A stretch of 64,000 bases of DNA, taken from the IMG/VR virus record IMGVR_UViG_3300012286_000299, positions 109,277 through 173,276 of that record; one strand, given 5' to 3'. This stretch comes from a virus (taxonomy: Duplodnaviria > Heunggongvirae > Uroviricota > Caudoviricetes). Both the position numbers and the translations under genes were made by a program. Positions within the stretch are counted from its first letter, which is position 1, and every line of letters starts with the position of its first letter. The notes beneath the pieces were generated by a model that had not been told where the DNA came from, ran no database searches, and saw nothing but the letters and a program-made list of their open reading frames with translations. This document shows positions 1,731 through 63,588 of the stretch, piece after piece.

Positions 1731-1758
1731 AGAGAGCTTGCTTACGCAAGCTCTTTTT
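1731..1758 (+). terminator. rho-independent terminator
   Basis: 9-bp stem AGAGCTTGC / GCAAGCTCT with loop TTAC, followed by a T run. Confidence 0.75.
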
Positions 1759-1768
1759 CGTATATTTA
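1738..1768 (+). promoter_or_regulatory. promoter, TTG-N20-TATATTTA
   Basis: TTG at 1738-1740. The 20-nt spacer contains the terminator 3' arm. TTCG-TATATTTA core. Precedes ORF 1794. Confidence 0.65.
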
Positions 1769-1793
1769 AGTATATTAATTTAAAATAAAGGTT

Positions 1794-2054
1794 ATGAAGT
1801 TTTTAAGATTTCTTTTTGGAGTTCTGATAATGCCTGTAATAGGTTGTTTAGAAATTTTTCTAGCAATAATGTTTCTATGTTGGGCATTTAGTGGATTTGG
1901 GTTAATTATGATAGCTATAGATTATACTGATCATAATCATCATTTTACTTGGGTAGGGTATAGTTTAATGGTTTTAGATGCTATAATATTAATACTGTTT
2001 CTATATGAGCATGTAACAAATGTTTACGAAAAAGTTTATAAAAATCAAAATTAA
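1794..2054 (+). CDS. small membrane protein
   Basis: ORF track; two long hydrophobic segments. Confidence 0.65.
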   Translation: MKFLRFLFGVLIMPVIGCLEIFLAIMFLCWAFSGFGLIMIAIDYTDHNHHFTWVGYSLMVLDAIILILFLYEHVTNVYEKVYKNQN

Positions 2055-2059
2055 AAGTT

Positions 2060-2413
2060 ATGTTTAAAAAATTATTCGCTTACAAACCAACAGAGCAAGA
2101 ACAGCAGTTTATAGACATTGTTAAAGATTTATTAAATCATCCTGACACTGTAGTGAGAATGTCTTTTTATTCAAGAAAGTACTTTTTGACTAACGAGAAA
2201 AAGCATTACTATATGATGCTACAATGGCCAAATGTACAAGTAACTAATACTAAGTTTTCATTTTGTAAATCAATGCATCCAAAAGCATATGATATAATTT
2301 TAAAATTAGTACATGATTATATTGAAAAAGATCGTCAAGCGTTAGAAGATCATATTTTTGCAAACGAAAATAAAATGCTTGAACAAGTAAGAACTAAATT
2401 ACAATTAGCATAA
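2060..2413 (+). CDS. hypothetical protein
   Basis: ORF track; co-oriented and tightly packed; no motif recognised. Confidence 0.6.
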   Translation: MFKKLFAYKPTEQEQQFIDIVKDLLNHPDTVVRMSFYSRKYFLTNEKKHYYMMLQWPNVQVTNTKFSFCKSMHPKAYDIILKLVHDYIEKDRQALEDHIFANENKMLEQVRTKLQLA

Positions 2414-2652
2414 TGTATACAAAAAATATTTACATAGAAGGATTTTTAACTCGTAATGGGTTTAAAAAAATGAATGAAAATGATTTTGCTAATATGAAAT
2501 GTGTTGTAAAAGTTTTTCCCAAATATTATGAAATAGTATTTAATGATGATGAATTTGGGGAAATGACAATGTATACTGATAATATTTCAATACCTCAATT
2601 AGTAGGTATTTTAACTTGGCACGGTTTAATTGATAAAGATTACAATAAATAA
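2413..2652 (+). CDS. hypothetical protein
   Basis: ORF track; TAATG stop/start coupling to the upstream ORF. Confidence 0.6.
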   Translation: MYTKNIYIEGFLTRNGFKKMNENDFANMKCVVKVFPKYYEIVFNDDEFGEMTMYTDNISIPQLVGILTWHGLIDKDYNK

Positions 2653-2927
2653 TGAGAGTAAAACATAGTAAATTTAAAGATTGTGAATTTGTCGTTAGTG
2701 TTGATACTGATGGTAAAAGTTTTACATTAGTAAAAGATCCTTATCCGGCTTATGATGTTAAACCTGATTACTACATTTATTGGAGAAATATAGGAGAAGA
2801 TATTAGAACAGCAGGAAGAACATTATTACGTACTCCTTCAGGACGTAAAGTATCACAAAGTAGAGCTACTAAAATATTACATAATATGATAGCAGCATCA
2901 AAACAACTAACATTTAGCAAATTATAA
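2652..2927 (+). CDS. hypothetical protein
   Basis: ORF track; TAATG coupling. Confidence 0.6.
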   Translation: MRVKHSKFKDCEFVVSVDTDGKSFTLVKDPYPAYDVKPDYYIYWRNIGEDIRTAGRTLLRTPSGRKVSQSRATKILHNMIAASKQLTFSKL

Positions 2928-3160
2928 TGGCAGCACTATCAGACAACAAATACGATGTATTTAATTGGATTATAAAAGTTTATGATTCATGTGAGAATGT
3001 ATCTCAAATAATAACAACAGAAAAATTAATTCGAAACTTTTATAAAATGTACGACGATTATACTTTGTATGATAAGTTACAGGACTATTATTTCGAAGTA
3101 TCAGAAAGACTACAACAAAAAGTAGATAAAAAGACTAGAAAACAAATACTAAAAGGATAA
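2927..3160 (+). CDS. hypothetical protein
   Basis: ORF track; TAATG coupling. Confidence 0.6.
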   Translation: MAALSDNKYDVFNWIIKVYDSCENVSQIITTEKLIRNFYKMYDDYTLYDKLQDYYFEVSERLQQKVDKKTRKQILKG

Positions 3161-3163
3161 ATT

Positions 3164-3565
3164 ATGACATTTATACAGAAATACGTAGACTTTATCTTAG
3201 ATAACATCATACAGGATAATATAAGAGTTCAGCTTTACAAACCTTTTGAAGATGGTTCAAGAATGATTACAAAGATAGGACCTACAGTACATTGTAAAGT
3301 AAAGATTGAAGTAATTGAAAAGTATACACGATCTGCTAAACTAAAACTGACCTTTGATAAATACGAAATCGAAGAACTATTCTTCATACCTTTCAGCTCA
3401 AGTCCAGAATCAATTGAAGGTAAGACACGAACTAAAATTGAAAAGATCGTAAATCAAACTTTCATTGACGATAACAGAACTGAGGATATAAAGCAGATGT
3501 ACGAACAACAACACAAGTTATTAGGAGAAGCACTATCAAAAATAGTAGGTAAGAAAAAAATATGA
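3164..3565 (+). CDS. hypothetical protein
   Basis: ORF track; no motif recognised. Confidence 0.6.
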   Translation: MTFIQKYVDFILDNIIQDNIRVQLYKPFEDGSRMITKIGPTVHCKVKIEVIEKYTRSAKLKLTFDKYEIEELFFIPFSSSPESIEGKTRTKIEKIVNQTFIDDNRTEDIKQMYEQQHKLLGEALSKIVGKKKI

Positions 3566-3912
3566 AGCTAGATAAACAACTCACAACATTAAATCAAGTT
3601 GCTGGTGCTATGTTTTTAGCCAACTCTAGATTTAAAACACAAGCCCATATATCTTCTCAAATGCTAAATCCTGAATGCAATGTAGATCATGAGGAAAGAG
3701 TTAGATATGAAATAATACAAAATCTATCAAAGCATGCAGTTGATACTTTCTCCAAAGAAATTAAAAAACAACAAGTACATGATGGAGAAGTACATTCACT
3801 TGAATTATTTATATTTCCAACTGAAGCATTAAAACTAGCAGTAGAGTACATTATTTCAGAAATGCCACAATCAGAAATAGACAGAATAAGAACAACACCA
3901 ATTTTTATTTAA
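3562..3912 (+). CDS. hypothetical protein
   Basis: ORF track; ATGA overlap with the upstream ORF. Confidence 0.6.
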   Translation: MKLDKQLTTLNQVAGAMFLANSRFKTQAHISSQMLNPECNVDHEERVRYEIIQNLSKHAVDTFSKEIKKQQVHDGEVHSLELFIFPTEALKLAVEYIISEMPQSEIDRIRTTPIFI

Positions 3913-3939
3913 GATTAAGTAAAATAAAATGGAAAAAGT

Positions 3940-3970
3940 TTGCTTATTTAGATTTTTCTTCGTATATTTA
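3940..3970 (+). promoter_or_regulatory. promoter, TTG-N20-TATATTTA
   Basis: TTG at 3940-3942 and a TTCGTATATTTA core. Precedes ORF 4003. Confidence 0.65.
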
Positions 3971-4002
3971 AGTATTATAAATTTAAAAAATAAATAAAAA
4001 TT

Positions 4003-7740: not shown

Positions 7741-8079
7741 ATGAATTTTATAATAGGGTTTTTATTAGGTTTATTGGCACAAGTATTAACTTTTATACAA
7801 TTACAAGGTCAATTCAAGTTTACTTGGATGAGAGAAAATCCATTTTTTGTAGCATTATTAGGATTACCCATTTCTTATTTATTAATTAAATCTGTTAATA
7901 GATTAGTAATACACTTTGATGGTCAATTATGGCCATCAAGGTTAATGGGTTTTTCAATAGGAGCAATAGTTTTTACTTTAATGTCACGTTGGTTATTTAA
8001 TGAACCCTTTACTTTAAAAACTGTTGTTTGTTTAACATTAGCATTTTGCATATTAATGATTCAATTATTTTGGAAATGA
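7741..8079 (+). CDS. membrane protein
   Basis: ORF track; several hydrophobic helices. Confidence 0.65.
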   Translation: MNFIIGFLLGLLAQVLTFIQLQGQFKFTWMRENPFFVALLGLPISYLLIKSVNRLVIHFDGQLWPSRLMGFSIGAIVFTLMSRWLFNEPFTLKTVVCLTLAFCILMIQLFWK

Positions 8080-8378
8080 AAAATTTAGAAACATGTCACC
8101 ATTGTGGTGAAGAAAAAGAAAACTGTTATCATGGATTTATAGCAATGACTCTTCCAATTCCTGAAGCAGAAGCTAAAAAGGAAAAATGGGGAGGGAAAGA
8201 ATGGTGGAAAAATTTAGAAAGAACAGATCTTACTAAAGAAGAGATGGAAGAGTTAGATGGACTTTGTACGTATGACCAACTACTAAATACAGTTGGAAGA
8301 GGAGTGCAGTGTGATGATTGTGGAAAAAGAGAAGCAGAACTTTATGAAATATATTATCCAAAAAGTTTGGAATCTTAA
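8076..8378 (+). CDS. small zinc-binding-type protein
   Basis: The frame of ORF 8028 was trimmed to the ATGA-coupled ATG at 8076. Two CxxC pairs (CHHCG, CDDCG). Confidence 0.55.
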   Translation: MKNLETCHHCGEEKENCYHGFIAMTLPIPEAEAKKEKWGGKEWWKNLERTDLTKEEMEELDGLCTYDQLLNTVGRGVQCDDCGKREAELYEIYYPKSLES

Positions 8379-8397
8379 AATAAATTTTGTATATTAA
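8367..8397 (+). promoter_or_regulatory. promoter, TTG-N20-TATATTAA
   Basis: TTG at 8367-8369 and a TTTGTATATTAA core. Precedes the small ORF 8414. Confidence 0.55.
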
Positions 8398-8413
8398 ATA
8401 AAAAATAAAAGTT

Positions 8414-9405: not shown

Positions 9406-9882
9406 ATGGGAAAATATCAATCAACAAAATTATTCGAGAACTACTCAGTAGCTATCAGACAATGGAAAGCACAACACTCACATTGTCAATTACTTCACGG
9501 ATATGCTTTAGAATTTAAAGTATGGTTTGAATCAATCGAACCTTTAGAAGAAAATCAATTAGACGAAATGAACTGGATCATGGACTATGGTGGGTTTAAA
9601 GAACAACCACAAGGAAACGGTTTAAAAGCATGGATGGACTATATGTGGGATCATACTCTACTAATCGAGAAAGATGATCCGCAATTAGAAACATTCCAAT
9701 ACATGCAAGAATTAGGTTTGTGTCATTTAAGAGTTATGGATAAGATTGGAGCTGAATCAGCTGCTAAACTAGTCTTCGATAAATTCAATGATGTAATGTC
9801 TAAGAATGGAGGAGGTAGAGTAAAAGTAGTAAAAGTAGAGTGCTGGGAAGCTCCTAAGAATTCATCAATTTATGGAGAGTAA
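9406..9882 (+). CDS. queD: 6-carboxytetrahydropterin synthase (QueD/PTPS family)
   Basis: HSHCQLLHGYALEF matches the QueD Cx3HG(H/Y) core. Size and neighbourhood (queE, folE) fit. Confidence 0.8.
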   Translation: MGKYQSTKLFENYSVAIRQWKAQHSHCQLLHGYALEFKVWFESIEPLEENQLDEMNWIMDYGGFKEQPQGNGLKAWMDYMWDHTLLIEKDDPQLETFQYMQELGLCHLRVMDKIGAESAAKLVFDKFNDVMSKNGGGRVKVVKVECWEAPKNSSIYGE

Positions 9883-10747
9883 ATTTCTACAAGAGAATGG
9901 TTTTTTCGATGATAATACAGGAAAAATATCTCTAGCAGATAAATTAGAAGGTAAAACAAAACAGTATATGAAATTAAAAAGAATAGAAGATTACAACAAA
10001 ATACTGCCGATAGTAGAAGTCTATACAGCAGTACAATCAGAAGGAAGTAGAGCAGGATATCCTACAGTAGTAATTCGAACAAGTGGCTGTACTCACCGCT
10101 GCTGGTTCGGTGAAGGAGGTTGGTGTGATAGTCCATACACATCAATTCATCCAGAGAAAGGGAAATATTCATTCCAGAATATAATTGAAGCATACGACAG
10201 AAATCCTCACATCACAGAGATGATGTTAACTGGAGGATCACCAACAATGCATCCAGCATTAGTAAACGAATTAACACATTTTGCACATGAAAGAGGAATT
10301 TTTATTACTATGGAAACAGAGGGATCACATTACTTGGAAACAGACTTTCCGATTAATTTACTTAGCATTAGCCCTAAGTTTTCAAATTCAATTCCAGCAT
10401 TGGGAACCCGCACTCCAGGCGGTGACATCGTTGATGAAAAGATGGTTAAACAGCATAACAAACTTAGATTAAATTATGATGCAATGTCTAAGTCAATTGC
10501 GTATCATTCTGATTATCACCTGAAACCAGTGTGGGATGGAGAGGATGAAGGAGCATTGAAAGAGATTATGGCTTGCATTAAAATTCTAGATATTCCAGAA
10601 GACAAAGTTTGGTTCATGCCAGCAGGAGATTCAAGAGAGGCTTTATTCAAATCATATCCTAAAATGTTTGATTGGGTAAGAGATAATGGATATAGATTGA
10701 CTTGGAGACCACACATCATTGCATTTGAAGATAAAAGAGAAGTATAA
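9872..10747 (+). CDS. queE: 7-carboxy-7-deazaguanine synthase (radical-SAM QueE)
   Basis: VVIRTSGCTHRCWFGEGGWCDSPYT cluster loop and GGSPTMH. Overlaps queD by 11 nt. Confidence 0.8.
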   Translation: MESKFLQENGFFDDNTGKISLADKLEGKTKQYMKLKRIEDYNKILPIVEVYTAVQSEGSRAGYPTVVIRTSGCTHRCWFGEGGWCDSPYTSIHPEKGKYSFQNIIEAYDRNPHITEMMLTGGSPTMHPALVNELTHFAHERGIFITMETEGSHYLETDFPINLLSISPKFSNSIPALGTRTPGGDIVDEKMVKQHNKLRLNYDAMSKSIAYHSDYHLKPVWDGEDEGALKEIMACIKILDIPEDKVWFMPAGDSREALFKSYPKMFDWVRDNGYRLTWRPHIIAFEDKREV

Positions 10748-10753
10748 TATCAT

Positions 10754-10784
10754 TTGGATATTAAAATAGAATTTATTACATTTA
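10754..10784 (+). promoter_or_regulatory. promoter, TTG-N20-TACATTTA
   Basis: TTG at 10754-10756, 20-nt spacer, TACATTTA. Precedes folE. Confidence 0.5.
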
Positions 10785-10803
10785 CCTATTAAAAAAATTA
10801 TAA

Positions 10804-11499
10804 ATGACAGAAAATAGAAAAAAAGTCCACAACGATTTAGAAGTGGTACAAGTGGGATTTGCTAATGGTGTAGCACCTGGATTTCCCCTAAATGAGATTG
10901 AAAAACAAGGTATGATTGAGCAGGCTGCTGAAGCCTATGGTCAGTTTTTAACAGCATTAGGTTGTGATTGGAAAAATGATCCTAATAGTGCTGATACACC
11001 AAGACGTGTAGCTAAAGCCTATGTTAACGATCTATGGAAAGGTAGATATACTCCAATGTCTGAAATTACTTCATTCCCAAGTGATGGTTATGATGGGATT
11101 GTGATTGAAAGAAATATCCCTTTAACATCAATGTGTTCACATCACCACCAAACAATTGGAGGGGTAGTTCATATTGGGTATGTGGTAGGTGAAAATGGTA
11201 GAGTAATTGGTTTATCTAAATTAAACCGAATTGTAGAGCATTTTGGGCGTAGAGGTGCTATTCAAGAACAATTAACCTCTGCTATTCATCAAGCTGTAGA
11301 TAAAATTTGTGAAAATAATAGAGGTGTAATAGTTTCTATTGTTGGTACTCACAATTGCGTTTCTTGTAGAGGTGTTAAGCATCAAGGTGCTTCAATGATT
11401 ACAACTAAAGCATCAGGTGTTTTTATGGAGAATGGAAACTTAGCAAGAGAAGAATTCTTTGATTCAATTAAAATTAATAATGGTAATCATCCAGTATAA
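10804..11499 (+). CDS. folE: GTP cyclohydrolase I
   Basis: SMCSHHHQTIGGVVHIGYV (compare SMCEHHLVPF in E. coli FolE) and RRGAIQEQLT. Confidence 0.9.
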   Translation: MTENRKKVHNDLEVVQVGFANGVAPGFPLNEIEKQGMIEQAAEAYGQFLTALGCDWKNDPNSADTPRRVAKAYVNDLWKGRYTPMSEITSFPSDGYDGIVIERNIPLTSMCSHHHQTIGGVVHIGYVVGENGRVIGLSKLNRIVEHFGRRGAIQEQLTSAIHQAVDKICENNRGVIVSIVGTHNCVSCRGVKHQGASMITTKASGVFMENGNLAREEFFDSIKINNGNHPV

Positions 11500-13539: not shown

Positions 13540-14085
13540 ATGGATAAAAAAGTATGCAGTAAATGTAAAATTGAAAAAACTTTAGAAGAGTTTTCAATAG
13601 ATTTGTCTACTAAAAGTGGTAGAAAAAGTCAATGTAAAGAATGTAGAAAATTAATTTCTAAAAAGGAATATAAAAGTGATCCTTTATCTCATAATGTTAG
13701 AACTAGTGCTTATTATAAGGATAATAAAGAGTCTACTAGGAAGCAACAACGTGATTATGAAAGAAAACGTTTAAAAGTAGATCCCTTATTTAAATTAGGA
13801 AAATCAATGAGATGTCATTTGTATAGAATATTACAAGGACAAAAATCCATGAGTACTAAAGAATTATTAGGGTATAATGTTGAAGAATTAAAAATTCATA
13901 TTGAATCTCTTTGGGTAGAAGGAATGAATTGGGAAAATTGGGGTAAAGAATGGGAAATTGATCATATTTATCCTCTATCTCAATATTTAAAAGAAGGAGA
14001 AACTAGGCCTAGTATAATTAATAGTCTTAAAAATCTTCAACCTATAAGTAAAATTGAAAATCGAAAAAAATCAAATAAGTTATAA
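13540..14085 (+). CDS. HNH homing endonuclease (free-standing), paralogue of ORF 50911
   Basis: N-terminal CSKCK...CKEC zinc motif. C-terminal EIDHIYPLS...NLQPISKIENRKKSN. Abuts the polB start (TAATG). Confidence 0.8.
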   Translation: MDKKVCSKCKIEKTLEEFSIDLSTKSGRKSQCKECRKLISKKEYKSDPLSHNVRTSAYYKDNKESTRKQQRDYERKRLKVDPLFKLGKSMRCHLYRILQGQKSMSTKELLGYNVEELKIHIESLWVEGMNWENWGKEWEIDHIYPLSQYLKEGETRPSIINSLKNLQPISKIENRKKSNKL

Positions 14086-15812: not shown

Positions 15813-16075
15813 TGGCATTAAAAGGACAATCAATTAGAAACGGGGTTACTATTAATATAAATGGTGTTAAAGCCGAAAAACAATTAGTTATTGATTTATC
15901 TGAAAATTGGGATGAATCACAAGAAAGATTCTTTAAGAAAATGCTTAAACAAGGAGGAAAATGTAAAGTTAATGGAAACTCATTTGAAATTATCCTCAAA
16001 GAAAGATCTGATATAGATTCAAAAGGAAATAGACCTATTAATTTACCACCAGTACCAGGAGAAAGAACATTTTAA
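15812..16075 (+). CDS. 87-aa ORF inserted between the two polB pieces
   Basis: ORF track. TAATG coupling upstream and TAATATG downstream. No nuclease or intein motif recognised. Confidence 0.5.
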   Translation: MALKGQSIRNGVTININGVKAEKQLVIDLSENWDESQERFFKKMLKQGGKCKVNGNSFEIILKERSDIDSKGNRPINLPPVPGERTF

Positions 16076-16076
16076 T

Positions 16077-49445: not shown

Positions 49446-49476
49446 TTGATTATATAAATTTTTCTTCGTATATTAA
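49446..49476 (+). promoter_or_regulatory. promoter, TTG-N20-TATATTAA
   Basis: TTG at 49446-49448. A second, perfect TAnnTTTG box (TACCTTTG, 49509-49516) lies in the long leader before ORF 49568. Confidence 0.6.
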
Positions 49477-49567
49477 ATCATTAGAAATTTAAAAATTAAG
49501 GTTGATACTACCTTTGCAAAAATAGTATTAGATAAATAAAAACAAGTTATAAATTAAAAACAAAAAA

Positions 49568-50425: not shown

Positions 50426-50443
50426 GGCTTGTTAATACAAGCC
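50426..50443 (+). terminator. hairpin terminator
   Basis: GGCTTG TTAATA CAAGCC followed by TTTCTTT. Confidence 0.7.
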
Positions 50444-50459
50444 TTTCTTTGTATATTAA
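50429..50459 (+). promoter_or_regulatory. promoter, TTG-N20-TATATTAA
   Basis: The TTG lies in the hairpin's 5' arm. TTTGTATATT core. Precedes ORF 50474. Confidence 0.6.
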
Positions 50460-50473
50460 ATCAAATAAAATAT

Positions 50474-51553: not shown

Positions 51554-51730
51554 ATGACTGAAAGAAAACAAATTATTCAGCAAGTAAAAGAGTTAGGTAT
51601 CAAAACTGATAAACCTGCTCATATGTGCACTACATCTTATCTTAAAGGGTTATTACCTAAAGAAGAAGTTAAACAAGAAGAAGTTAAAATTGGGTTTTTT
51701 AAGAAGGTTTTAAGAGGATTAGGCTTTTAA
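51554..51730 (+). CDS. 58-aa protein with a HeH/SAP-like N-terminus (below cutoff), paralogous to the N-terminus of ORF 59038
   Basis: IIQQVKELGIKTDKPAHMCTTSYLKGLL against IIAEVKKLGLTTEKPAHQCKTDYLQQVL. Confidence 0.55.
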   Translation: MTERKQIIQQVKELGIKTDKPAHMCTTSYLKGLLPKEEVKQEEVKIGFFKKVLRGLGF

Positions 51731-51750
51731 AGCCTTTCTTCGTATATTAA
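51720..51750 (+). promoter_or_regulatory. promoter core TTCGTATATTAA (TAG at -33)
   Basis: Core at 51739-51750. Precedes ORF 51778. Confidence 0.55.
51721..51735 (+). terminator. short hairpin
   Basis: AGGCTT TTA AAGCCT followed by TTCTT. Confidence 0.45.
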
Positions 51751-51777
51751 AGCATTATTAATTTAAAAATAAAGGTT

Positions 51778-52575: not shown

Positions 52576-52580
52576 TAATA

Positions 52581-52602
52581 AAGGGCCTGGAATAGGGCCC
52601 TT
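52581..52602 (+). terminator. hairpin terminator
   Basis: AAGGGCC ... GGCCCTT followed by TAAATTTT. Confidence 0.65.
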
Positions 52603-52623
52603 TAAATTTTCTTCGTATATTTA
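52593..52623 (+). promoter_or_regulatory. promoter core TTCGTATATTTA (TAG at -33)
   Basis: Core at 52612-52623. Precedes denV. Confidence 0.55.
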
Positions 52624-52637
52624 ATAAAATAAAGGTT

Positions 52638-53075
52638 ATGACAAGAATTAATGCATTCATACCAGTTGAGGATTTATCAAACAAACATTTGATAGCTGAA
52701 CACAGAGAGATAAAACGTATACCTAATCACGTAGCTAAACATTTTAGTAAAATGTCTCTATCAAAAATACCTAAACAATTTACGCTTAATACTGGTCACG
52801 TTACTTTCTTCTTTGATAAAGGGCAATTTACCTATGAAAGGTATAAGCAGCTTTATGAAGAGTGTAAAAAAAGAGGGTTCAATATCACTTATTATGGACA
52901 TGCTTGGGATGTTTATAAAGATAAACCTGATGTTTGGAATAAAGATTTAAACGTAACATCACAAGAAAAAATACGCATACAAACCCTAATTAAAGATAGA
53001 ATTAGGAGTAATGAAAAAATAGCCCTTGAAAAAAAGTTAGCAAAAAAGTTAAGTAAATCTATTTTGGATTTATAA
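52638..53075 (+). CDS. denV: pyrimidine-dimer DNA glycosylase (T4 endonuclease V family)
   Basis: MTRINAFIPVEDLSNKHLIAEHREIKRIP...GHVTFFFDK...KRGFNI is near-collinear with T4 DenV ([27 protein letters not shown]...GHVTFFYDK...KRGFNI). Confidence 0.95.
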   Translation: MTRINAFIPVEDLSNKHLIAEHREIKRIPNHVAKHFSKMSLSKIPKQFTLNTGHVTFFFDKGQFTYERYKQLYEECKKRGFNITYYGHAWDVYKDKPDVWNKDLNVTSQEKIRIQTLIKDRIRSNEKIALEKKLAKKLSKSILDL

Positions 53076-53094
53076 AATAATCTTCGTATATTTA
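53064..53094 (+). promoter_or_regulatory. promoter, TTG-N20-TATATTTA
   Basis: TTG at 53064-53066. Precedes ORF 53117. Confidence 0.65.
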
Positions 53095-53116
53095 ATTATA
53101 ATTAAAAATAAAGGTT

Positions 53117-53997: not shown

Positions 53998-54396
53998 ATG
54001 AAAAGAGTAATAGTTAAGTACAAAGATAGTGAACAAACACTAATTTATCACATTGTTAGTTTTAAAAACGACAAACGTCAAATTCTAGTTGAGGATGTAA
54101 AAGAATTCTTAGCAAACCCAAGAGTAGAATCATACGAAATCATAGACATGTCAGGGCGATCATCGAATTCTGATGGTGAAGGTAAAGTATACGAATCGAA
54201 GTACGAACGGGAAAATAATAACTTACCTAAAATAATCGCTAATGAGGTAATACAAGTTGCTACATCATTAAAAGGTTGTACTAAGGAAACCATTGATAAA
54301 TGGAACCAACATCTTGATTTTGACTTACATGAAAAGTTAAATGGTGAATACGGTTTTACAGGCGCCAAAAGATTATATAATATCTTTGGATTGTAA
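53998..54396 (+). CDS. hypothetical protein
   Basis: ORF track. Confidence 0.6.
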   Translation: MKRVIVKYKDSEQTLIYHIVSFKNDKRQILVEDVKEFLANPRVESYEIIDMSGRSSNSDGEGKVYESKYERENNNLPKIIANEVIQVATSLKGCTKETIDKWNQHLDFDLHEKLNGEYGFTGAKRLYNIFGL

Positions 54397-54416
54397 AATA
54401 TAACTTCGTATATTAA
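54386..54416 (+). promoter_or_regulatory. promoter, TTG-N20-TATATTAA
   Basis: TTG at 54386-54388. Precedes the small ORF 54438. Confidence 0.65.
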
Positions 54417-54437
54417 AGCATAATTAAAATATAAATT

Positions 54438-54676: not shown

Positions 54677-54707
54677 TTGTTTTATTAAAATTTACTTAGT
54701 ATATTAA
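54677..54707 (+). promoter_or_regulatory. promoter, TTG-N20-TATATTAA (TTAG variant)
   Basis: TTG at 54677-54679. Precedes ORF 54730. Confidence 0.6.
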
Positions 54708-54729
54708 ATCATAATTAAAATAATAAGTT

Positions 54730-55297: not shown

Positions 55298-55366
55298 AGT
55301 CAGGTAGTGTAATGGTAGCACCCGGAGGTCACACTTCTAGAACAGGTTCGAATCCTGTCCTGACTA
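55298..55366 (+). tRNA. tRNA-like element 1 (69 nt, non-canonical; possible pseudo-tRNA, loop GUCACAC would read CAC/Val)
   Basis: Good acceptor stem AGTCAGG/CCTGACT, D arm GTGT-AATGGTA-GCAC and T arm ACAGG-TTCGAAT-CCTGT. Only 20 nt remain for position 26, the anticodon arm and the variable loop, and the best stem needs 2 G-U pairs and a C-A mismatch. No encoded CCA. Confidence 0.45.
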
Positions 55367-55367
55367 C
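55344..55367 (+). repeat. 24-nt exact direct repeat (copy 1): AGGTTCGAATCCTGTCCTGACTAC
   Basis: Identical to 55560-55583. It is the T arm plus 3' acceptor of both tRNA-like elements. Confidence 0.95.
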
Positions 55368-55637: not shown

Positions 55638-55655
55638 TAGCCCCGAAAGGGGCTA
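55638..55655 (+). terminator. hairpin terminator
   Basis: TAGCCCC GAAA GGGGCTA followed by TTACTTTATTT. Confidence 0.65.
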
Positions 55656-55664: not shown

Positions 55665-55695
55665 TTGGAGGGTATAAATTAAATTCGTATATTTA
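55665..55695 (+). promoter_or_regulatory. cassette promoter (TTGGAGGGTATAAATTAAATTCGTATATTT)
   Basis: Extended right-arm consensus. Precedes ORF 55712. Confidence 0.6.
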
Positions 55696-55711
55696 TTACA
55701 AATAAAATAAA

Positions 55712-55878: not shown

Positions 55879-55909
55879 TTTGAGTGTTTAAAACTAATTC
55901 GTATATTAA
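55879..55909 (+). promoter_or_regulatory. cassette promoter
   Basis: TTTGAGTG...AATTCGTATATTAAAGTATAATTAA. Precedes ORF 55933. Confidence 0.6.
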
Positions 55910-55932
55910 AGTATAATTAAAAAATAAAGGTT

Positions 55933-56206: not shown

Positions 56207-56524
56207 ATGAATTTAGATTTTGACTTAATTAGAAGTGAGGTATTAGTAGCACGTAAGGAAGATAGTCCTAACGATTGCCCTTCCACAAATGTTGAAGAAC
56301 TTTCTGAAAATATAAAATATTTACTTGAAGAGCTTCCTATAATGAATTTATCTAATATTGAAGACCTCGATGAGGATGAATTCAGTTTATTTGATGATTA
56401 CTTTGAGGATGAACAATTCTGGATATTGATTTGGAAAGGCAGAACATTCTTTGTAGATACTCAAGGGTATTCCTATGCAAGATATTGTGGTGAATTAATT
56501 AATTATAATGAAGTTGAGGGTTAA
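56207..56524 (+). CDS. hypothetical acidic protein
   Basis: ORF track. Confidence 0.6.
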   Translation: MNLDFDLIRSEVLVARKEDSPNDCPSTNVEELSENIKYLLEELPIMNLSNIEDLDEDEFSLFDDYFEDEQFWILIWKGRTFFVDTQGYSYARYCGELINYNEVEG

Positions 56525-56543
56525 AATTAACTTAGTATATTAA
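56513..56543 (+). promoter_or_regulatory. cassette promoter (TTAG variant)
   Basis: TTGAGGGTTAAAATTAACTTAGTATATTAAAGTATATTAA. Precedes ORF 56567. Confidence 0.6.
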
Positions 56544-56566
56544 AGTATATTAATAATTAAAAAGTT

Positions 56567-56935: not shown

Positions 56936-57100
56936 ATGACACAGTTTGAAGAAAACAACCCTAAGGAATTAAAGAAATTTATTTCCGAGTTAGACAATCT
57001 TATAGATGAATTTCACCCTAACATATATCTAATTGATGATGTGTTTAAAGGGGTAGAAATTATAAGAAACGCTATTAAGGAAGTGATTGCTGAGAAATAA
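56936..57100 (+). CDS. 54-aa protein (below cutoff)
   Basis: MTQFEENNPKELKKFISELDNLIDEF... Confidence 0.45.
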   Translation: MTQFEENNPKELKKFISELDNLIDEFHPNIYLIDDVFKGVEIIRNAIKEVIAEK

Positions 57101-57113
57101 CTTCGTATATTTA
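57083..57113 (+). promoter_or_regulatory. cassette promoter
   Basis: AACTTCGTATATTTAAGCATAATTAA. Precedes ORF 57137. Confidence 0.6.
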
Positions 57114-57136
57114 AGCATAATTAAAATAATAAAGTT

Positions 57137-57391: not shown

Positions 57392-57422
57392 GTGTTTATT
57401 ATAAATTTACCTCGTATATTAA
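57392..57422 (+). promoter_or_regulatory. cassette promoter (CTCG variant)
   Basis: TTACCTCGTATATTAAAGCATAATTAA. Precedes ORF 57447. Confidence 0.55.
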
Positions 57423-57446
57423 AGCATAATTAAAATAAGAAAAGTT

Positions 57447-57855: not shown

Positions 57856-57886
57856 TAGTGAGGTATAAATTAACTTCGTATATTAA
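57856..57886 (+). promoter_or_regulatory. cassette promoter
   Basis: GTGAGGTATAAATTAACTTCGTATATTAAGGCATAATTAA. Precedes ORF 57914. Confidence 0.65.
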
Positions 57887-57913
57887 GGCATAATTAATTA
57901 AAACATTAATATA

Positions 57914-58222
57914 ATGGATTACGGAAAAAAGTATTTCACTAACAACAATAAATTTGGTGTTGGTAGAGTTGAGACAATGAGGTTAGTTAATCAACCTGAA
58001 ATTTTGAATTTCATAACTCACAATCCTGGAAGAACAGAACTACAAATTATGGAGCAGTTGTATAATTACCCTAATTATGTAGGTATATTTCAGGAAAGTA
58101 ATAAAAAGTATGCTGACCGATTAAGAGCATTACTTCATAGTGGGAAAATATCCCGAGTTAAAGCTAGAACCATAGATGGGCCTCGTTTTATATATTTCTC
58201 AATATATGAGAAAAAGGCATAG
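57914..58222 (+). CDS. hypothetical protein
   Basis: ORF track; own promoter. Confidence 0.65.
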   Translation: MDYGKKYFTNNNKFGVGRVETMRLVNQPEILNFITHNPGRTELQIMEQLYNYPNYVGIFQESNKKYADRLRALLHSGKISRVKARTIDGPRFIYFSIYEKKA

Positions 58223-58250
58223 TAAGGTATAAATTAACTTCGTATATTAA
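58220..58250 (+). promoter_or_regulatory. cassette promoter
   Basis: GTAAGGTATAAATTAACTTCGTATATTAAGGCATAATTAA. Precedes ORF 58275. Confidence 0.65.
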
Positions 58251-58274
58251 GGCATAATTAAAATATTAAATGTT

Positions 58275-58578: not shown

Positions 58579-58609
58579 TTTTGAGGTATAAATTAACTTC
58601 GTATATTAA
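58579..58609 (+). promoter_or_regulatory. cassette promoter
   Basis: TTGAGGTATAAATTAACTTCGTATATTAAAGTATAATTAA. Precedes ORF 58638. Confidence 0.65.
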
Positions 58610-58637
58610 AGTATAATTAAAATAAATAATTAAGGTT

Positions 58638-58961: not shown

Positions 58962-58992
58962 GTTGAGGGACAAAAATAAATTCGTATATTTA
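58962..58992 (+). promoter_or_regulatory. cassette promoter
   Basis: TTGAGGGACAAAAATAAATTCGTATATTTAAAACATATTAA. Precedes ORF 59038. Confidence 0.6.
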
Positions 58993-59037
58993 AAACATAT
59001 TAATAATAAAAAAGTTTAATTTTAAAATTTAAAGGTT

Positions 59038-59499
59038 ATGAACAGAATTGAAATCATTGCAGAAGTAAAAAAATTAGGTTTAACAACAGAAAAACCTGCG
59101 CACCAATGTAAAACTGATTACTTACAACAAGTATTAGATGCACACTATGCAACTAGTGTTGAAGTAAAACAGAAAGGTAGACCTGTGAATGAAAACAGTG
59201 AACGCCAAAAACGACTTGCTGAATTAGAAGCAAAACGTGAAGCAGGTGAACTACGTAAAGGTAGACCAGTAGTGGAAGGTAGTGCTCGTCAAGTGAGATT
59301 ATCACTTAAAGGTACATTGCCATTAGGTAGAAAACCAAATCCTGAAAGCGCTGCTTACAAACGTAAAATGGAATTGGAAGCAAAACGTGCTGCGGGTGAA
59401 CTAAAAAGAGGTAGACCAGCACAAGTAAAAGAAGCAGCTGAACCAGTAGCAGCTCAAGTAGAAGCGCCTGCAGCAGCAGAGCCACAAACTGAAGTATAA
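59038..59499 (+). CDS. AT-hook-type DNA-binding protein with a HeH/SAP-like N-terminus and an internal repeat
   Basis: GRP cores x4 (KGRPVNE, KGRPVVE, LGRKPNP, KRGRPAQ). Repeated ELEAKR(E/A)AGEL(R/K)(K/R)GRP. Ala/Pro-rich tail. Visibly GC-richer. Confidence 0.7.
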   Translation: MNRIEIIAEVKKLGLTTEKPAHQCKTDYLQQVLDAHYATSVEVKQKGRPVNENSERQKRLAELEAKREAGELRKGRPVVEGSARQVRLSLKGTLPLGRKPNPESAAYKRKMELEAKRAAGELKRGRPAQVKEAAEPVAAQVEAPAAAEPQTEV

Positions 59500-59568: not shown

Positions 59569-59805
59569 TTGAAAAGACATACAGTAATTAGCAAAAAATA
59601 TGTTGAAACCTACAAAAATTACCCTAAAGCAAAACCCAAACCACAATATATAATTGGGTGTGTTTATTATGGAAGAAACCGCTCAAATCATTTAAAATTA
59701 GGCATACTAACCTTATTTGGTGATAGGGTATCAACTTTAAAAACTAAAGATGGTAAATTGGTTAAAGTTAAAAATAACACTCTAAAAAGCGCTCAAACAG
59801 GGTAG
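59569..59805 (+). CDS. hypothetical basic protein (start codon doubtful)
   Basis: The ORF track uses a TTG that is part of a perfect TATATTTG (-7-type) box at 59564-59571. There is no in-frame ATG. Confidence 0.35.
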   Translation: MKRHTVISKKYVETYKNYPKAKPKPQYIIGCVYYGRNRSNHLKLGILTLFGDRVSTLKTKDGKLVKVKNNTLKSAQTG

Positions 59806-59835
59806 TTTGAGGTATAATTTAACTTCGTATATTAA
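59805..59835 (+). promoter_or_regulatory. cassette promoter
   Basis: TTGAGGTATAATTTAACTTCGTATATTAAAGTATAATTAA. Precedes ORF 59860. Confidence 0.65.
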
Positions 59836-59859
59836 AGTATAATTAATAAATACATTATT

Positions 59860-59982
59860 ATGGTAAAAGTAGTTAAATCAGGCATCACATATTATGAGGT
59901 AAATTTAGGTAGTATATCTCTAATTGCATTTGAACCACAGGAATTAGTTATTAGCAACAGAAAAACCTGCGCACCAATGTAA
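59860..59982 (+). CDS. 40-aa ORF whose 3' end is rewritten by the duplication junction
   Basis: MVKVVKSGITYYEVNLGSISLIAFEPQELVI then SNRKTCAPM-stop. The second copy at 60731 ends RMVNMNISLN-stop. Confidence 0.4.
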   Translation: MVKVVKSGITYYEVNLGSISLIAFEPQELVISNRKTCAPM

Positions 59983-60370
59983 AACTGATTACTTACAACA
60001 AGTATTAGATGCACACTATGCAACTAGTGTTGAAGTAAAACAGAAAGGTAGACCTGTGAATGAAAACAGTGAACGCCAAAAACGACTTGCTGAATTAGAA
60101 GCAAAACGTGAAGCAGGTGAACTACGTAAAGGTAGACCAGTAGTGGAAGGTAGTGCTCGTCAAGTGAGATTATCACTTAAAGGTACATTGCCATTAGGTA
60201 GAAAACCAAATCCTGAAAGCGCTGCTTACAAACGTAAAATGGAATTGGAAGCAAAACGTGCTGCGGGTGAACTAAAAAGAGGTAGACCAGCACAAGTAAA
60301 AGAAGCAGCTGAACCAGTAGCAGCTCAAGTAGAAGCGCCTGCAGCAGCAGAGCCACAAACTGAAGTATAA
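59948..60370 (+). pseudogene. 5'-truncated duplicate of the AT-hook gene (lacks the first 15 codons, promoter and ATG)
   Basis: The frame opens after a TAG at 59945-59947. The ORF track could only start it at a GTG (60056). Sequence is identical to 59077-59499. Confidence 0.6.
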
Positions 60371-60439: not shown

Positions 60440-60676
60440 TTGAAAAGACATACAGTAATTAGCAAAAAATATGTTGAAACCTACAAAAATTACCCTAAAG
60501 CAAAACCCAAACCACAATATATAATTGGGTGTGTTTATTATGGAAGAAACCGCTCAAATCATTTAAAATTAGGCATACTAACCTTATTTGGTGATAGGGT
60601 ATCAACTTTAAAAACTAAAGATGGTAAATTGGTTAAAGTTAAAAATAACACTCTAAAAAGCGCTCAAACAGGGTAG
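60440..60676 (+). CDS. duplicate of ORF 59569 (same start-codon doubt)
   Basis: Identical 78-aa translation. Confidence 0.35.
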   Translation: MKRHTVISKKYVETYKNYPKAKPKPQYIIGCVYYGRNRSNHLKLGILTLFGDRVSTLKTKDGKLVKVKNNTLKSAQTG

Positions 60677-60706
60677 TTTGAGGTATAATTTAACTTCGTA
60701 TATTAA
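60676..60706 (+). promoter_or_regulatory. cassette promoter (duplicate)
   Basis: Identical to 59805-59835. Precedes ORF 60731. Confidence 0.65.
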
Positions 60707-60730
60707 AGTATAATTAATAAATACATTATT

Positions 60731-61133: not shown

Positions 61134-61164
61134 GTTTGAGGTATAAATTTACTTCGTATATTTA
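61134..61164 (+). promoter_or_regulatory. cassette promoter
   Basis: TTGAGGTATAAATTTACTTCGTATATTTAAGCATATTAA. Precedes ORF 61193. Confidence 0.65.
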
Positions 61165-61192
61165 AGCATATTAATAATTAAAATATAATGTT

Positions 61193-61579: not shown

Positions 61580-61610
61580 TGTGAGGGTTAAATATAACCT
61601 CGTATATTTA
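61580..61610 (+). promoter_or_regulatory. cassette promoter (CTCG variant)
   Basis: GTGAGGGTTAAATATAACCTCGTATATTTAAGTATAATTAA. Precedes ORF 61635. Confidence 0.6.
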
Positions 61611-61634
61611 AGTATAATTAATAAATAAAACATC

Positions 61635-61901
61635 ATGACAAAAGAGGAATTTATAGCAGGAACACCGTTCTATGTAGGTAAAAAAAGATACAGAGGTGAA
61701 TCAACACACTATTATGACCCAAAAATAGGTTGTATTTGTAAACAAAATAGATCTTCGGCCGATGAAAGAATTGTACTTGAAGATTATGCTTGCAATATTA
61801 AAAAAGTAGGTAGATTAGGGTTCGAAGGGTTCACTCATGTAATGAATAAACAAGTGAATGTTAAATATAAATTTGAGCATTTGAGTGTATTTGAGGGTTA
61901 A
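61635..61901 (+). CDS. hypothetical protein
   Basis: ORF track; own promoter. Confidence 0.65.
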   Translation: MTKEEFIAGTPFYVGKKRYRGESTHYYDPKIGCICKQNRSSADERIVLEDYACNIKKVGRLGFEGFTHVMNKQVNVKYKFEHLSVFEG

Positions 61902-61920
61902 GATTAGCTTCGTATATTAA
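61890..61920 (+). promoter_or_regulatory. cassette promoter
   Basis: TTGAGGGTTAAGATTAGCTTCGTATATTAAGGTATAATTAA. Overlaps the 3' end of ORF 61635. Precedes ORF 61951. Confidence 0.65.
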
Positions 61921-61950
61921 GGTATAATTAATAATAAAAACATAAAGGTT

Positions 61951-62323: not shown

Positions 62324-62342
62324 AAGCCCCGGAATGGGGCTT
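62324..62342 (+). terminator. hairpin terminator
   Basis: AAGCCCC GGAAT GGGGCTT. Confidence 0.6.
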
Positions 62343-62365
62343 ATAAATTTTACTTCGTATATTTA
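62335..62365 (+). promoter_or_regulatory. cassette promoter
   Basis: TTTTACTTCGTATATTTAAGTATAATTAA. Precedes ORF 62388. Confidence 0.6.
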
Positions 62366-62387
62366 AGTATAATTAAAAATTAAGGTT

Positions 62388-62705
62388 ATGTTAAATACAA
62401 CTTATTTAGGAAGAGAAATCACTAGACGTGATAATGTTAAAGTAGAAGGTACATTCCAATCATTTTATGAGGCATCAAAACGTTTGATGGGGATGGGTTA
62501 TATAATGGGAAGCATGTGTGGAGATGAACCAATAGGGTTTGCCGATGCAGACAAATACGAGTATATTGCCAAATGGAGAAACATTGACCCGAGCGATAGA
62601 GTAAAAGTGGACGGGGTAATGATCAGTAGTGACTGGAGAGAGGGTAGTGTTGAAATAATATGGTTTAAAGAGCCATTAAATAAGGCAGTAGCGGGTATAA
62701 ATTAA
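62388..62705 (+). CDS. hypothetical protein
   Basis: ORF track; own promoter. Confidence 0.65.
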   Translation: MLNTTYLGREITRRDNVKVEGTFQSFYEASKRLMGMGYIMGSMCGDEPIGFADADKYEYIAKWRNIDPSDRVKVDGVMISSDWREGSVEIIWFKEPLNKAVAGIN

Positions 62706-62718
62706 CTTCGTATATTGA
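62688..62718 (+). promoter_or_regulatory. cassette promoter
   Basis: GCGGGTATAAATTAACTTCGTATATTGAGGTATAATTAA. Overlaps the 3' end of ORF 62388. Precedes ORF 62743. Confidence 0.6.
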
Positions 62719-62742
62719 GGTATAATTAAAAAAGTAAACGTT

Positions 62743-63087
62743 ATGGTAAAAGAAATTACTGCAATAGATAAACTGATTGCTATTGAGGAAATGCTTGTTA
62801 AAATGAGGTATGACACTACAGGAATGAGTGTGAGCCAAGCACTGGAAATAATGAAGGCAACGGTAAAGGCTATTGATAAAGCAAAATTACCCTCAAACAC
62901 GATTTACCCTATGACACGAGACGATTTATACAAAATAATGGATTCAGAAAACTATACGGTGGACGAGATCAAAGATTCAGTGTATATGGGGAACAGAATA
63001 ACCACTATATTGGAGAATGAGGACGTGGAGATAGATGACGAACAGGTAAAGGTGTTGGTGGTAGAGTACCAAAATGCTAGAGCATAG
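62743..63087 (+). CDS. hypothetical protein
   Basis: ORF track; own promoter. Confidence 0.65.
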   Translation: MVKEITAIDKLIAIEEMLVKMRYDTTGMSVSQALEIMKATVKAIDKAKLPSNTIYPMTRDDLYKIMDSENYTVDEIKDSVYMGNRITTILENEDVEIDDEQVKVLVVEYQNARA

Positions 63088-63231
63088 TAATGTTAAACCA
63101 TTCCAATATCTAAAGATATCGTAATGTGGAAACTTATTCCTAGTATATTGGGGTAACGGACAAATGTTCCGGCGGTAACGCTTAATAGTATAGTTGTATG
63201 TGGAAATTGGGTTAAATTGGGGTGGATAATA

Positions 63232-63256
63232 GGGCAGGGTCTCCGCTCCCCTGCCC
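63232..63256 (+). other. GC-rich 8-bp stem hairpin inside an ORF-free GC-rich spacer
   Basis: GGGCAGGG tctccgctc CCCTGCCC. Confidence 0.7.
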
Positions 63257-63311
63257 CGTTATGGAATAACTTTCCTCCCTACCTCCCTTGTATATACAAT
63301 TTTTAATGGAA

Positions 63312-63342
63312 CTAGGTGGAACAAATCAACTTCGTATATTAT
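63312..63342 (+). promoter_or_regulatory. cassette promoter
   Basis: CAACTTCGTATATTATAGTATATTAA. Precedes ORF 63371. Confidence 0.6.
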
Positions 63343-63370
63343 AGTATATTAATAATTAAACAACTATATT

Positions 63371-63553
63371 ATGATAAAGTTTGAGGTTTACCCAAGTGTT
63401 AGATTACAAGCACACCAATTGTTAATCAATTCGAACCGTTTGAAAAGTGTATTTTATAATACTGGAAATACTTTCCTAATTGACCCCGTTGATTTACCTC
63501 GTTGTAAGGAAATACTTACCAAACGAATGATTAAATTAAAGGTAGTTAATTAA
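63371..63553 (+). CDS. hypothetical protein
   Basis: ORF track; own promoter. Confidence 0.6.
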   Translation: MIKFEVYPSVRLQAHQLLINSNRLKSVFYNTGNTFLIDPVDLPRCKEILTKRMIKLKVVN

Positions 63554-63557
63554 GGTA

Positions 63558-63588
63558 ATAGGGGAATAAAAATCCCTTCGTATATTAT
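63558..63588 (+). promoter_or_regulatory. cassette promoter
   Basis: TCCCTTCGTATATTATAGTATAATAA. Precedes ORF 63619. Confidence 0.6.

Follow-up and report, generated by a model that had tools for sequence, protein, structure and literature searches.

The uncultured Caudoviricetes record IMGVR_UViG_3300012286_000299 raises the question of what a TATATT-centered motif, found at 39 sites between the genes of its positions 109,277 to 173,276 (64,000 nucleotides, nt; this whole stretch is termed the window), does there and which RNA polymerase reads it. The sites are interpreted here, with a probability of about 60%, as early/middle promoters of a large uncultured myophage related to Flavobacterium phage vB_FspM_immuto (hereafter immuto), which would be read by host RNA polymerase carrying its primary sigma factor. 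Promoter activity is inferred from the statistics, placement, and conservation of the motif and from its spacing to start codons. An earlier sequence-only reading of this DNA had proposed promoters of a Bacteroidota phage that are at times fused to the upstream terminator, and it was right as to the kind of element.

A repeated strand-specific motif and its anatomy

The repetition of the motif is statistically real. The exact decamer TTCGTATATT occurred 28 times, only on the plus strand, compared to 0.23 copies expected from 100 dinucleotide-preserving shuffles of the window, an enrichment over shuffled AT-rich sequence that had been set beforehand as a test. A position weight matrix of the core (16 columns, threshold ≥14 bits) found 35 sites on the plus strand and none on the minus strand (0.13 expected), all 35 being intergenic, with TATATT mostly 22-40 nt upstream of the ATG of the next long open reading frame (ORF). 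All 39 sites of the sequence-only reading were recovered, every one intergenic and on the plus strand; this set takes in two sites with two mismatches (8385 and 20555) and three sites (10754, 18243, and 25756) without the CTTCG that had been termed a clamp. TCG directly preceded TATATT in 30 of 49 intergenic and 0 of 73 genic copies of the hexamer, an association that stands out against the genome-wide under-representation of CpG (observed/expected ratio 0.49). A TTG exactly 20 nt upstream of TATATT (TTG-N20) was present at 19/39 sites, the chance frequency of TTG being 1.8% per position; TTG lay at N18 in four sites and at N19 in four, and TAG occupied N20 in five. All 19 coordinates listed earlier for TTG-N20 proved correct, although the total had been put at 22, and the recount replaced about six right-arm sites with TTG at 18-19 nt by eight and three TAG sites by five. 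The statement that nearly every gap above 25 nt holds the motif was too strong, since TATATT occurred in 37 of 54 such gaps (on a crude gene map) and near-universal occupancy is close to true for 38-64 kb only.

With the first T of TATATT numbered -12 (the F. johnsoniae convention), the alignment gave T-15 at 35/36, C-14 at 31/36, and G-13 at 35/36 sites, T-12, A-11, T-8, and T-7 at 36/36 each, T-6 at 14/36, and G-5 at 0/36. The box runs TATATT(A/T)A. Conservation extends a further ~15 nt downstream as TATATT-a-A-A-(G/T)-(T/C)-A-T-A-A-T-T-A-A (block aAAGyATAATTAA), including a pyrimidine-A 5-6 nt past the hexamer. Because this block keeps a fixed distance to TATATT whereas the distance from TATATT to the start codon ranges from 8 to 47 nt across sites, it is taken to be part of the promoter or transcript start rather than of a ribosome-binding region. 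Comparison of the conserved leader with Rfam matched no family, with only a tRNA at 55298-55366 above threshold.

Two classes of sites were distinguished. Class A comprises 18 clamp-bearing sites at 1.7-54.7 kb with the pattern tTTGg-N15-CTTcGTATATTaAAt.A, which stand ahead of operons of replication, nucleotide metabolism, and repair. The 17 class B sites fall within 55.6-63.6 kb at intervals of 214-1329 nt and follow the pattern gG..GAGGtataAAtTaACTTCGTATATTaAaGtATAATtAAaA, each with one small ORF (median 89 amino acids) behind it; TTG is absent from N20 in this class, being shifted to N18-19 or missing, and the copies share ~70 nt at 60-77% identity. A further, late-type motif, (C/A)TATTTATA, lies 20-25 nt upstream of ATGs and was found as (C)TATTTATA ahead of at least 17 structural genes in immuto (L072/L073). 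In the window, ATATTTATA occurred seven times on the plus strand and never on the minus strand, with late-type sites at 13528, 23392, 36365, 38920, 39721, 50811, and 55851. These distributions suggest at least two promoter classes, of which the TATATT motif would be the early/middle one. The sequence-only reading had overlooked the downstream block, the split into two classes, and the late-type motif, leaving its account of the motif's extent incomplete.

TTG-N20-TATATT-N6-ATG is a recurrent geometry among the relatives. Over all loci compared, which include 62 related loci in IMG/VR and the motif-dense early regions of close relatives, the N6 spacing was found 28 times compared to 1-12 times at neighboring spacings and at most twice on the opposite strand, and many of the TATATT-N6-ATG cases carry TTTGG at N20. 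Since N6 puts the first base of the start codon at the very position of +1 for a -10-type hexamer, as in a leaderless gene, TATATT would be the melting hexamer, and the peak supports its assignment as the -10/-7 element. Putative leaderless genes were noted in L007, L013, L017, L018, L022, L026, L028, L029, L033, L036, L043, L046, and L054/55/65 as well as at window position 20560, the clamp-loader gene being an example of this geometry recurring across lineages of the clade. Leaderless mRNAs have been reported to be rare in Bacteroides, at ~3.7% (PMC7366714).

Conservation across relatives narrowed the motif further. The invariant part was TCGTATATT, with the two preceding bases varying among CT, AT, TT, GT, and AG. 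At one orthologous site the five clamp bases read TTTTG, TTACG, GTGCG, GTTCG, and GTCCG around an invariant TTTGGA and GTATATTA, although this region is partly coding and not a clean test. Among groups defined by identity of the family-B DNA polymerase (PolB), which ranges from 93% down to 23% in the 62 loci, TTTGG-N-(C/T)TTCGTATATT was kept in those at 64%, 58-60%, and 52%, and the group at 35% retained TTTGG-N-CATATATT with CA in the place of TCG. Every form of the motif is present in immuto, among them GGCTTGtttattCAAGTCtttTTTCGTATATT, whose TTG sits in a terminator stem; the immuto copies cluster in a block of small ORFs (63-76 kb) and in replication and metabolism regions, with few in the structural region, where they follow terminators. 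Orthologous sites keep the core with diverged flanks, as upstream of a DUF932 gene (window 51738, immuto 63146) and at window 8385 and immuto 29838. In a blastn search of the promoter consensus against cultured phages, immuto was the sole significant match (E = 2e-4); other matches, including 61 Flavobacterium sp. BAL314 phages, were short with E up to 10 and were not relied upon. The early region of the related contig L006 (IMGVR_UViG_3300046010_009812, reverse strand) retains (N)TTCGTATATT with an upstream block aGGAATA/GGACGT ~25 nt away and no TTG, and reads ccAGTATAAATAA downstream, an exact TATAAATA. Since L006 keeps the core and differs on both sides of it, the flanking elements evolve faster than the core.

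Terminators overlap the motif at several sites. The seven sites at which a terminator hairpin had been placed inside the spacer were all borne out, with folding free energies (dG) of -11.0 to -17.8 kcal/mol compared to a background with mean -4.2 and 5% quantile -9.1, and an eighth spacer hairpin was found at 62335-62379 (dG -15.0). An independent scan gave 17 terminator-like sites against 5.7 ± 2.2 expected, some directly abutting motif copies; these include 39454-39470 and 51721-51735 within the spacers of the sites at 39452 and 51720, 52579-52604 overlapping the -33 region of the site at 52593, and 55638-55655 before the first right-arm promoter. A GC-rich hairpin with a T-run after the gene end is present at all eight overlap sites, which confirms predicted intrinsic terminators embedded in the promoter spacer.

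Relatives, host, and guanine modification

All genes of the window lie on one strand and its GC content is 26-34%. It encodes a split PolB, clamp loader, GroES/GroEL, Hsp20, thymidylate synthase, FolE/QueD/QueE, DNA ligase, endonucleases V and VII, tRNA nucleotidyltransferase, and a 12-kb glycosyltransferase cluster. An 8-kb megablast query matched no cultured phage, and tblastn with PolB returned distant matches only (≤34%) without a pointer to the host. The window also matches a Logan assembly of run ERR3489837, which likewise says nothing about the host. GroEL was closest to that of immuto (53%), followed by Bacteroides DAC phages (48%). Immuto has an annotated 160-kb genome and infects Flavobacterium sp. 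LMO8; the window is collinear with it over 40 common ORFs at 30-88% identity, the collinear segments of the window being 2-38 kb (26-62 kb in immuto) and 47-62 kb (62-74 kb in immuto). Immuto-like phages are a recognized clade with swapped canonical DNA polymerases (PMC11348598), in line with the family-B polymerase of the window and the family-A polymerase of immuto at the same locus. In the window (13540-17012), PolB is split into ORFs 14085-15812 and 16077-17012 with an 87-amino-acid ORF in between. A His-Me finger endonuclease-like ORF was observed upstream of PolB and an HNH-like ORF at 25103 (25103-25774).

Shine-Dalgarno sequences were essentially absent, GGAG, GAGG, and AGGA each occurring upstream of at most 5 of 124 genes, and leaders were A-rich, as described for Bacteroidota (PMC6847099). 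The start context was A-rich...(A)AGGTTATG, with AGGTTATG found 23 times on the plus and never on the minus strand and likewise in immuto; T was favored at -1/-2 and a purine at -3 of the start codon. Because of the collinearity with immuto and the motif common to both, the GroEL affinities, and the near-absence of Shine-Dalgarno sequences, a Bacteroidota host is well supported, and the host is probably a member of the Flavobacteriia. The host assignment of the sequence-only reading was upheld on the strength of the 40 ORFs collinear with a phage that carries the same motif.

In immuto DNA, 7-formamidomethyl-7-deazaguanine (fdPreQ1) takes the place of 100% of the G (PMC10516641). Genes for QueD, QueE, and FolE of the 7-deazaguanine pathway, 45-88% identical to those of immuto, were identified at window 9406-11499; DpdA, QueC, and QueF were not found in the window. 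QueC was present in one close relative, and DpdA was absent from close-relative loci and found only in the 64%-PolB group. By analogy with immuto, the DNA of this phage is probably G-hypermodified, so that, given the FolE/QueD/QueE genes, the conserved Gs of the motif (in TTG, in TCG, and opposite C) would carry the modification. Loss of G-5 might be linked to this; on a speculative reading judged unlikely, it could be an adaptation to the modification, or recognition could depend on the modification and tell phage from host DNA. Compared on this point, the Cellulophaga phage phiST (100% dDG; own RNA polymerase) gives an ambiguous picture, its first small ORFs being preceded by TATCTTTG and many other sites carrying TATCTTTA.

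Candidate readers of the motif

The -7 element of F. johnsoniae has nearly invariant T-12, A-11, T-8, T-7, T-6, and G-5 with a weak -33 element, and transcription starts 4-5 nt past the -7 8-mer (PMC6847099); in B. thetaiotaomicron the same motif stands at 81% of primary start sites and the 5' untranslated region (UTR) has a mode of 23 nt (PMC7366714). The motif shares T-12, A-11, T-8, and T-7 with the host definition TAnnTTTG and departs from it at G-5 and T-6, which contradicts the proposal that the phage copies the host -7 box. A TTTG ~19-21 nt upstream, as in host -33 elements, does occur: 19/39 sites have TTG at N20, mostly within tTTGg, and eight others have it at 18-19 nt. This spacing had been called Bacteroidota-type, a label that is not diagnostic, since TTG-N20-TATATT is equally TTGACA-N17-TATAAT. 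A sigma-70 scan reported the class A sites as TTGGAA-17-TATATT, with the 17-nt spacer present and TATATT matching TATAAT in five of six positions, the -35 agreeing in TTG alone (TTGGAA, TTGCTT, TTGATT); the generic scan had no discriminating power in AT-rich DNA and was not enriched over shuffles (114 vs. 112.6). The extended -10 TG at -15/-14 is not present, the motif having T-15, C-14, and G-13 instead, and neither is the T4 middle promoter MotA box, (a/t)(a/t)(a/t)TGCTTtA centered at -30.

Other Bacteroidota phages bear on the bases before the hexamer. The B. fragilis phage B124-14, which we take to be the source of the promoter P_BfP1E6, has repeated promoters TCCT-TATATTTG-CA, the same hexamer finished by the host TG, and the unrelated Bacteroides phage DAC16 has TTCG-TACCTTTG, the same TTCG before a canonical box. 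With the identical TTCG in DAC16 and only (T)CG constant among the relatives of the window, the description of CTTCG as a phage-specific clamp does not hold. A pyrimidine-rich tetramer with C-14 looks like a common feature of strong Bacteroidota phage promoters that is not part of the published host consensus.

In the proposed mechanism, an optional -33 element tTTGg, ending at -33 and present in most class A sites, would be followed by an AT-rich spacer that at eight sites would be supplied by the intrinsic terminator ahead of it (3' hairpin arm and U-tract). A candidate "extended -7" element, (C)TTCG at -17 to -13 (of which (T)CG is constant among relatives), would abut the TATATT hexamer at -12 to -7 and then (A/T)A; transcription would probably start 6-7 nt past the hexamer at the conserved yA, and the transcript would open with the conserved A-rich ..AGyATAATTAAAA.. 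before a start codon without Shine-Dalgarno sequence. The host polymerase with its primary sigma would open TATATT, and the fixed TCG, together with TTTG where present, would make contacts with the duplex in compensation for the absent terminal TG of the host box, resulting in strong promoters. The 17 class B sites, packed into 8 kb, would drive early genes presumed to act in host takeover; class A would drive operons of replication, nucleotide metabolism, and repair; and structural genes, as seen in immuto, would use (C)TATTTATA. The implied leaders of ~10-28 nt fit the Bacteroides 5' UTR mode (PMC7366714). The stronger proposal that (T)TCG at -16 to -13 is an undescribed "extended -7" element of Bacteroidota RNA polymerase, allowing strong promoters without the -33 TTTG and the terminal TG, is speculative and considered doubtful.

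The host polymerase with its primary sigma is favored because the same core precedes the presumed earliest genes. Several observations weigh against this interpretation. G-5 is missing from 36/36 and T-6 from 22/36 sites, both near-invariant in F. johnsoniae (PMC6847099), so that host sigma might not recognize the box unaided; TTG at N20 is lacking in class B and contig L006, where different G-rich blocks are conserved upstream; the TTCG copies of DAC16 are few (five), four of them resembling one repeated cassette; and the host of this particular phage is itself an inferred one. A phage factor is possible because no function is known for about two-thirds of the ORFs and the window covers part of a genome. 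Such a phage-made or virion-delivered factor (a sigma, an AsiA/MotA-type pair, or a polymerase modifier), with (T)TCG or the class B block GAGGTATAAATTAA as its candidate binding site, is regarded as a possible though rather unlikely reader of the promoter. It would accommodate a conservation far tighter than that of host promoters, the departures at G-5 and T-6, the blocks that replace the -33 TTG in class B and L006, and the many small early ORFs of unassigned function, and the T4-like replication module makes a T4-like program conceivable. It is at odds with the presence of one core before both the presumed earliest and the replication genes, which requires some copies to work on unmodified host polymerase, with the identical TTCG beside a canonical host -7 box in DAC16, and with the use of TATATTTG in B124-14. 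Nor did a PHROG or Pfam scan of ~70 window ORFs reveal an RNA polymerase, sigma factor, or MotA/AsiA-like protein, although distant analogues would escape it; the complete immuto genome has no annotated RNA polymerase or sigma factor, and a probe with regions 2-4 of E. coli RpoD gave no convincing match. Immuto gp092, an RpoD-like candidate (E = 0.02), was rejected for want of family support.

The remaining explanations dispense with a Bacteroidota promoter at TATATT. Ordinary sigma-70 promoters of a non-Bacteroidota low-GC host (-35 TTGnnn, 17-bp spacer, -10 TATATT) would explain the canonical geometry, a hexamer matching TATAAT in five of six positions including A-11 and T-7, and the absence of the Bacteroidota-defining TTTG end; collinearity with a Flavobacterium-isolated phage having the same motif, the GroEL affinities, the near-absence of Shine-Dalgarno sequences, a -35 of the TTGG/TTGC/TTGA type that is never TTGACA, and the occurrence of TATATT in B124-14 make this quite improbable. 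It is similarly improbable, if marginally less so, that the downstream box or its RNA is the functional unit, with GTATAAT/GTATAAA as the true -10, a late gp55-type TATAAATA-like promoter, a processing site, or a translation enhancer. The block is indeed conserved, as TATAAT in the window and as the T4 late consensus TATAAATA in L001/L006, and would fall in the 5' leader if TATATT were the -10. Yet several good sites lack it (8385, 20555, 52611, 43413, and 45003), immuto has GGTATCAAT in its place, its information content is far below that of TCGTATATT, no Rfam family matches, the N6-ATG peak is anchored on TATATT, and TTG would sit 30 nt from the downstream box; a conserved initial transcribed sequence also fits host-read promoters. 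That the copies are alike by descent alone, through recent cassette duplication in the right arm and with no selected function, was already disfavored and is highly improbable: an 871-bp perfect tandem duplication does bear two identical copies and class B copies are alike over ~70 nt, but the core is invariant amid diverged flanks, is kept in immuto and in relatives down to 52-64% PolB identity, and shows strict strand bias, intergenic placement, and fixed geometry.

Sites, neighboring features, and known promoter systems

All sites are on the plus strand and are given here by the extent of the element. The first, class A site (1738-1782; core TTTCGTATATT) has TTG-N20 within a terminator hairpin (dG -17.8) and the next ATG at 1794; it is followed by class A sites at 3940-3984 (TTG-N20, CTTCGTATATT, ATG 4003) and 8367-8411 (variant core TTTTGTATATT, the orthologous site being kept in relatives and immuto). 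The site upstream of FolE (10754-10798) is a weak clamp-less variant whose hexamer is TACATT after TTG-N20, and not TATATT as first reported. Two further clamp-less TTG-N20-TATATT sites stand ahead of the GroES/GroEL operon (18243-18287, TTTAT replacing CTTCG) and of the 12-kb glycosyltransferase operon (25756-25800). Between them, the class A variant at 20537-20581 (CTCCATATATT; spacer hairpin, dG -11.0) has the clamp-loader ATG 8 nt past TATATT, compared to 6 in relatives, where the geometry is leaderless. Three ORFs had been considered mis-started, and at 18243 and at 50429 the TTG "start" is indeed the -33 TTG; 59569 is not a TTG-N20 site, its TTG overlapping a CAGTATATATT box.

Class A continues at 38195-38239 (TTGGAA-17-TATATT), 39452-39496 (CTTTGTATATT, dG -13.9), and 41667-41711, where the hairpin GGCTTG..CAAGCC holds the TTG (dG -12.2), then at 43395-43439 upstream of the tRNA nucleotidyltransferase gene, 44985-45029, 47431-47475 (TAG at N20), 48845-48889 (TTTCGTATATT), and 49446-49490, which precedes an SPFH/Band-7 gene by a long leader (ATG 49568). 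The site at 50429-50473 (CTTTGTATATT) has a spacer hairpin (dG -17.7), and those at 51720-51764 (dG -15.1) and 52593-52637 (dG -16.4), both with TAG at N20, precede the DUF932 gene, whose immuto orthologue has the motif, and the endonuclease V gene, respectively. The last class A sites are 53064-53108, 54386-54430 (a short ORF next), and 54677-54721 (CTTAGTATATT).

The first right-arm promoter, at 55665-55709, reads TTGGAGGGTATAAATTAA ATTCGTATATT. Class B sites then lie at 55879-55923, 56513-56557 (CTTAGTATATT), 57083-57127, 57392-57436 (CCTCGTATATT), 57856-57900 (with the upstream block GAGGTATAAATTAA), 58220-58264, 58579-58623, 58962-59006 (ATTCGTATATT), 59805-59849 and 60676-60720 (copies 1 and 2 of the 871-bp duplication, in identical context), 61134-61178, 61580-61624 (CCTCGTATATT), 61890-61934, 62688-62732, 63312-63356, and 63558-63602. 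The right-arm promoter at 62335-62379 has the terminator hairpin GCCCCggaatGGGGC in its -36 to -14 zone (dG -15.0), which was missing from the earlier list of hairpins.

Other features were observed along the window. The stretch 25798-38192 (~12 kb of glycosyltransferase, methyltransferase, and HAD-hydrolase genes, partly common with immuto) contains no internal motif copy and seems to form a single long operon headed by the clamp-less site at 25756. The perfect tandem duplication has a period of 871 nt (59080-59379 equals 59951-60250 at 100%) and includes small ORFs; a duplicated ORF holds internal 49-nt repeats, and the duplication may be recent or an assembly artefact. A tRNA gene at 55298-55367 (Rfam, 44.8 bits), to which ARAGORN assigned no anticodon ("tRNA-???", two-base "ca"), lies within the 423-nt gap that opens the right arm. 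The 100-amino-acid protein at 8076-8378 is 80% identical to immuto gp218 and among the best conserved small proteins of the clade; the gp218 name "RNA polymerase subunit N (RPB10)" had no Pfam or PHROG support and was not adopted. The last 145 nt (63856-64000) are abruptly GC-rich (CCAGGCTTTACAGCCCCGGGTCCC...GGATCGGCACGGGTTGCCCACGCGG), possibly the end of the genome, a chimeric join, or DNA of foreign origin.

A literature search on the sequence CGTATATT returned nothing relevant and no paper on promoters of immuto-like phages was found. For the large flavobacterial phages of the immuto-like clade, which abound in freshwater and marine metagenomes (62 related loci in IMG/VR), the sites would amount to a first map of promoters, giving an early/middle versus late program and corrected ORF starts. 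They are candidate strong, compact, and portable expression parts for Flavobacteriia, including a combined terminator-promoter module; as a precedent in Bacteroides, the B. fragilis phage promoter P_BfP1E6 is in use as a strong constitutive part (PMC11554821; bioRxiv 10.1101/2025.03.18.644028). The missing host -7 ending, the fixed TCG, and the probably hypermodified G offer a test case for DNA reading by the unusual Bacteroidota sigma and for a possible influence of base modification on promoter sequence, for which immuto on Flavobacterium sp. LMO8 is an available cultured system.

Among known systems, Bacteroidota primary-sigma (sigma-ABfr) promoters resemble the motif in TA at -12/-11, TT at -8/-7, the TTTG ending at -33 in class A, leaders of ~10-28 nt, genes without Shine-Dalgarno sequences, and the host phylum indicated by immuto (PMC6847099; PMC7366714); the phage box differs in ending with (A/T)A rather than TG and in the fixed CTTCG and ~15 downstream nt, both outside the published host consensus. 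The promoters of B124-14 and DAC16 likewise occur as many near-identical copies before genes, share TATATT (B124-14) or TTCG (DAC16), and have a pyrimidine-rich tetramer with C at -14 abutting the box, and differ in their canonical TTTG ending, upstream elements, and genome types. Extended -10 (TGn) sigma-70 promoters are similar in that conserved bases just 5' of the hexamer could replace a weak or absent upstream element, with T-15 C-14 G-13 here in contrast to T-15 G-14 n-13.

The early promoters of phages T4 and T5 are read by host sigma-70. They share with the window dense arrays of strong promoters before small early genes, a consensus tighter and longer than that of the host that includes spacer and initially transcribed positions, and a separate single-box late class, the replication module of the window being T4-like; the host sigma type and the sequences differ, and no AsiA/MotA-type middle system was identified here. 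The T4 late promoter TATAAATA (gp55) has a parallel in the single-box AT-rich motif 20-25 nt before late genes of immuto-like phages, with the difference that their box appears on the coding strand as (C)TATTTATA, the reverse complement of TATAAATA, and is distinct from the TATATT motif. In kind, the 39 sites would belong with early phage promoters that mimic that of the host in a tightened form, the new part being a variant that lacks the final TG and carries extra fixed bases.

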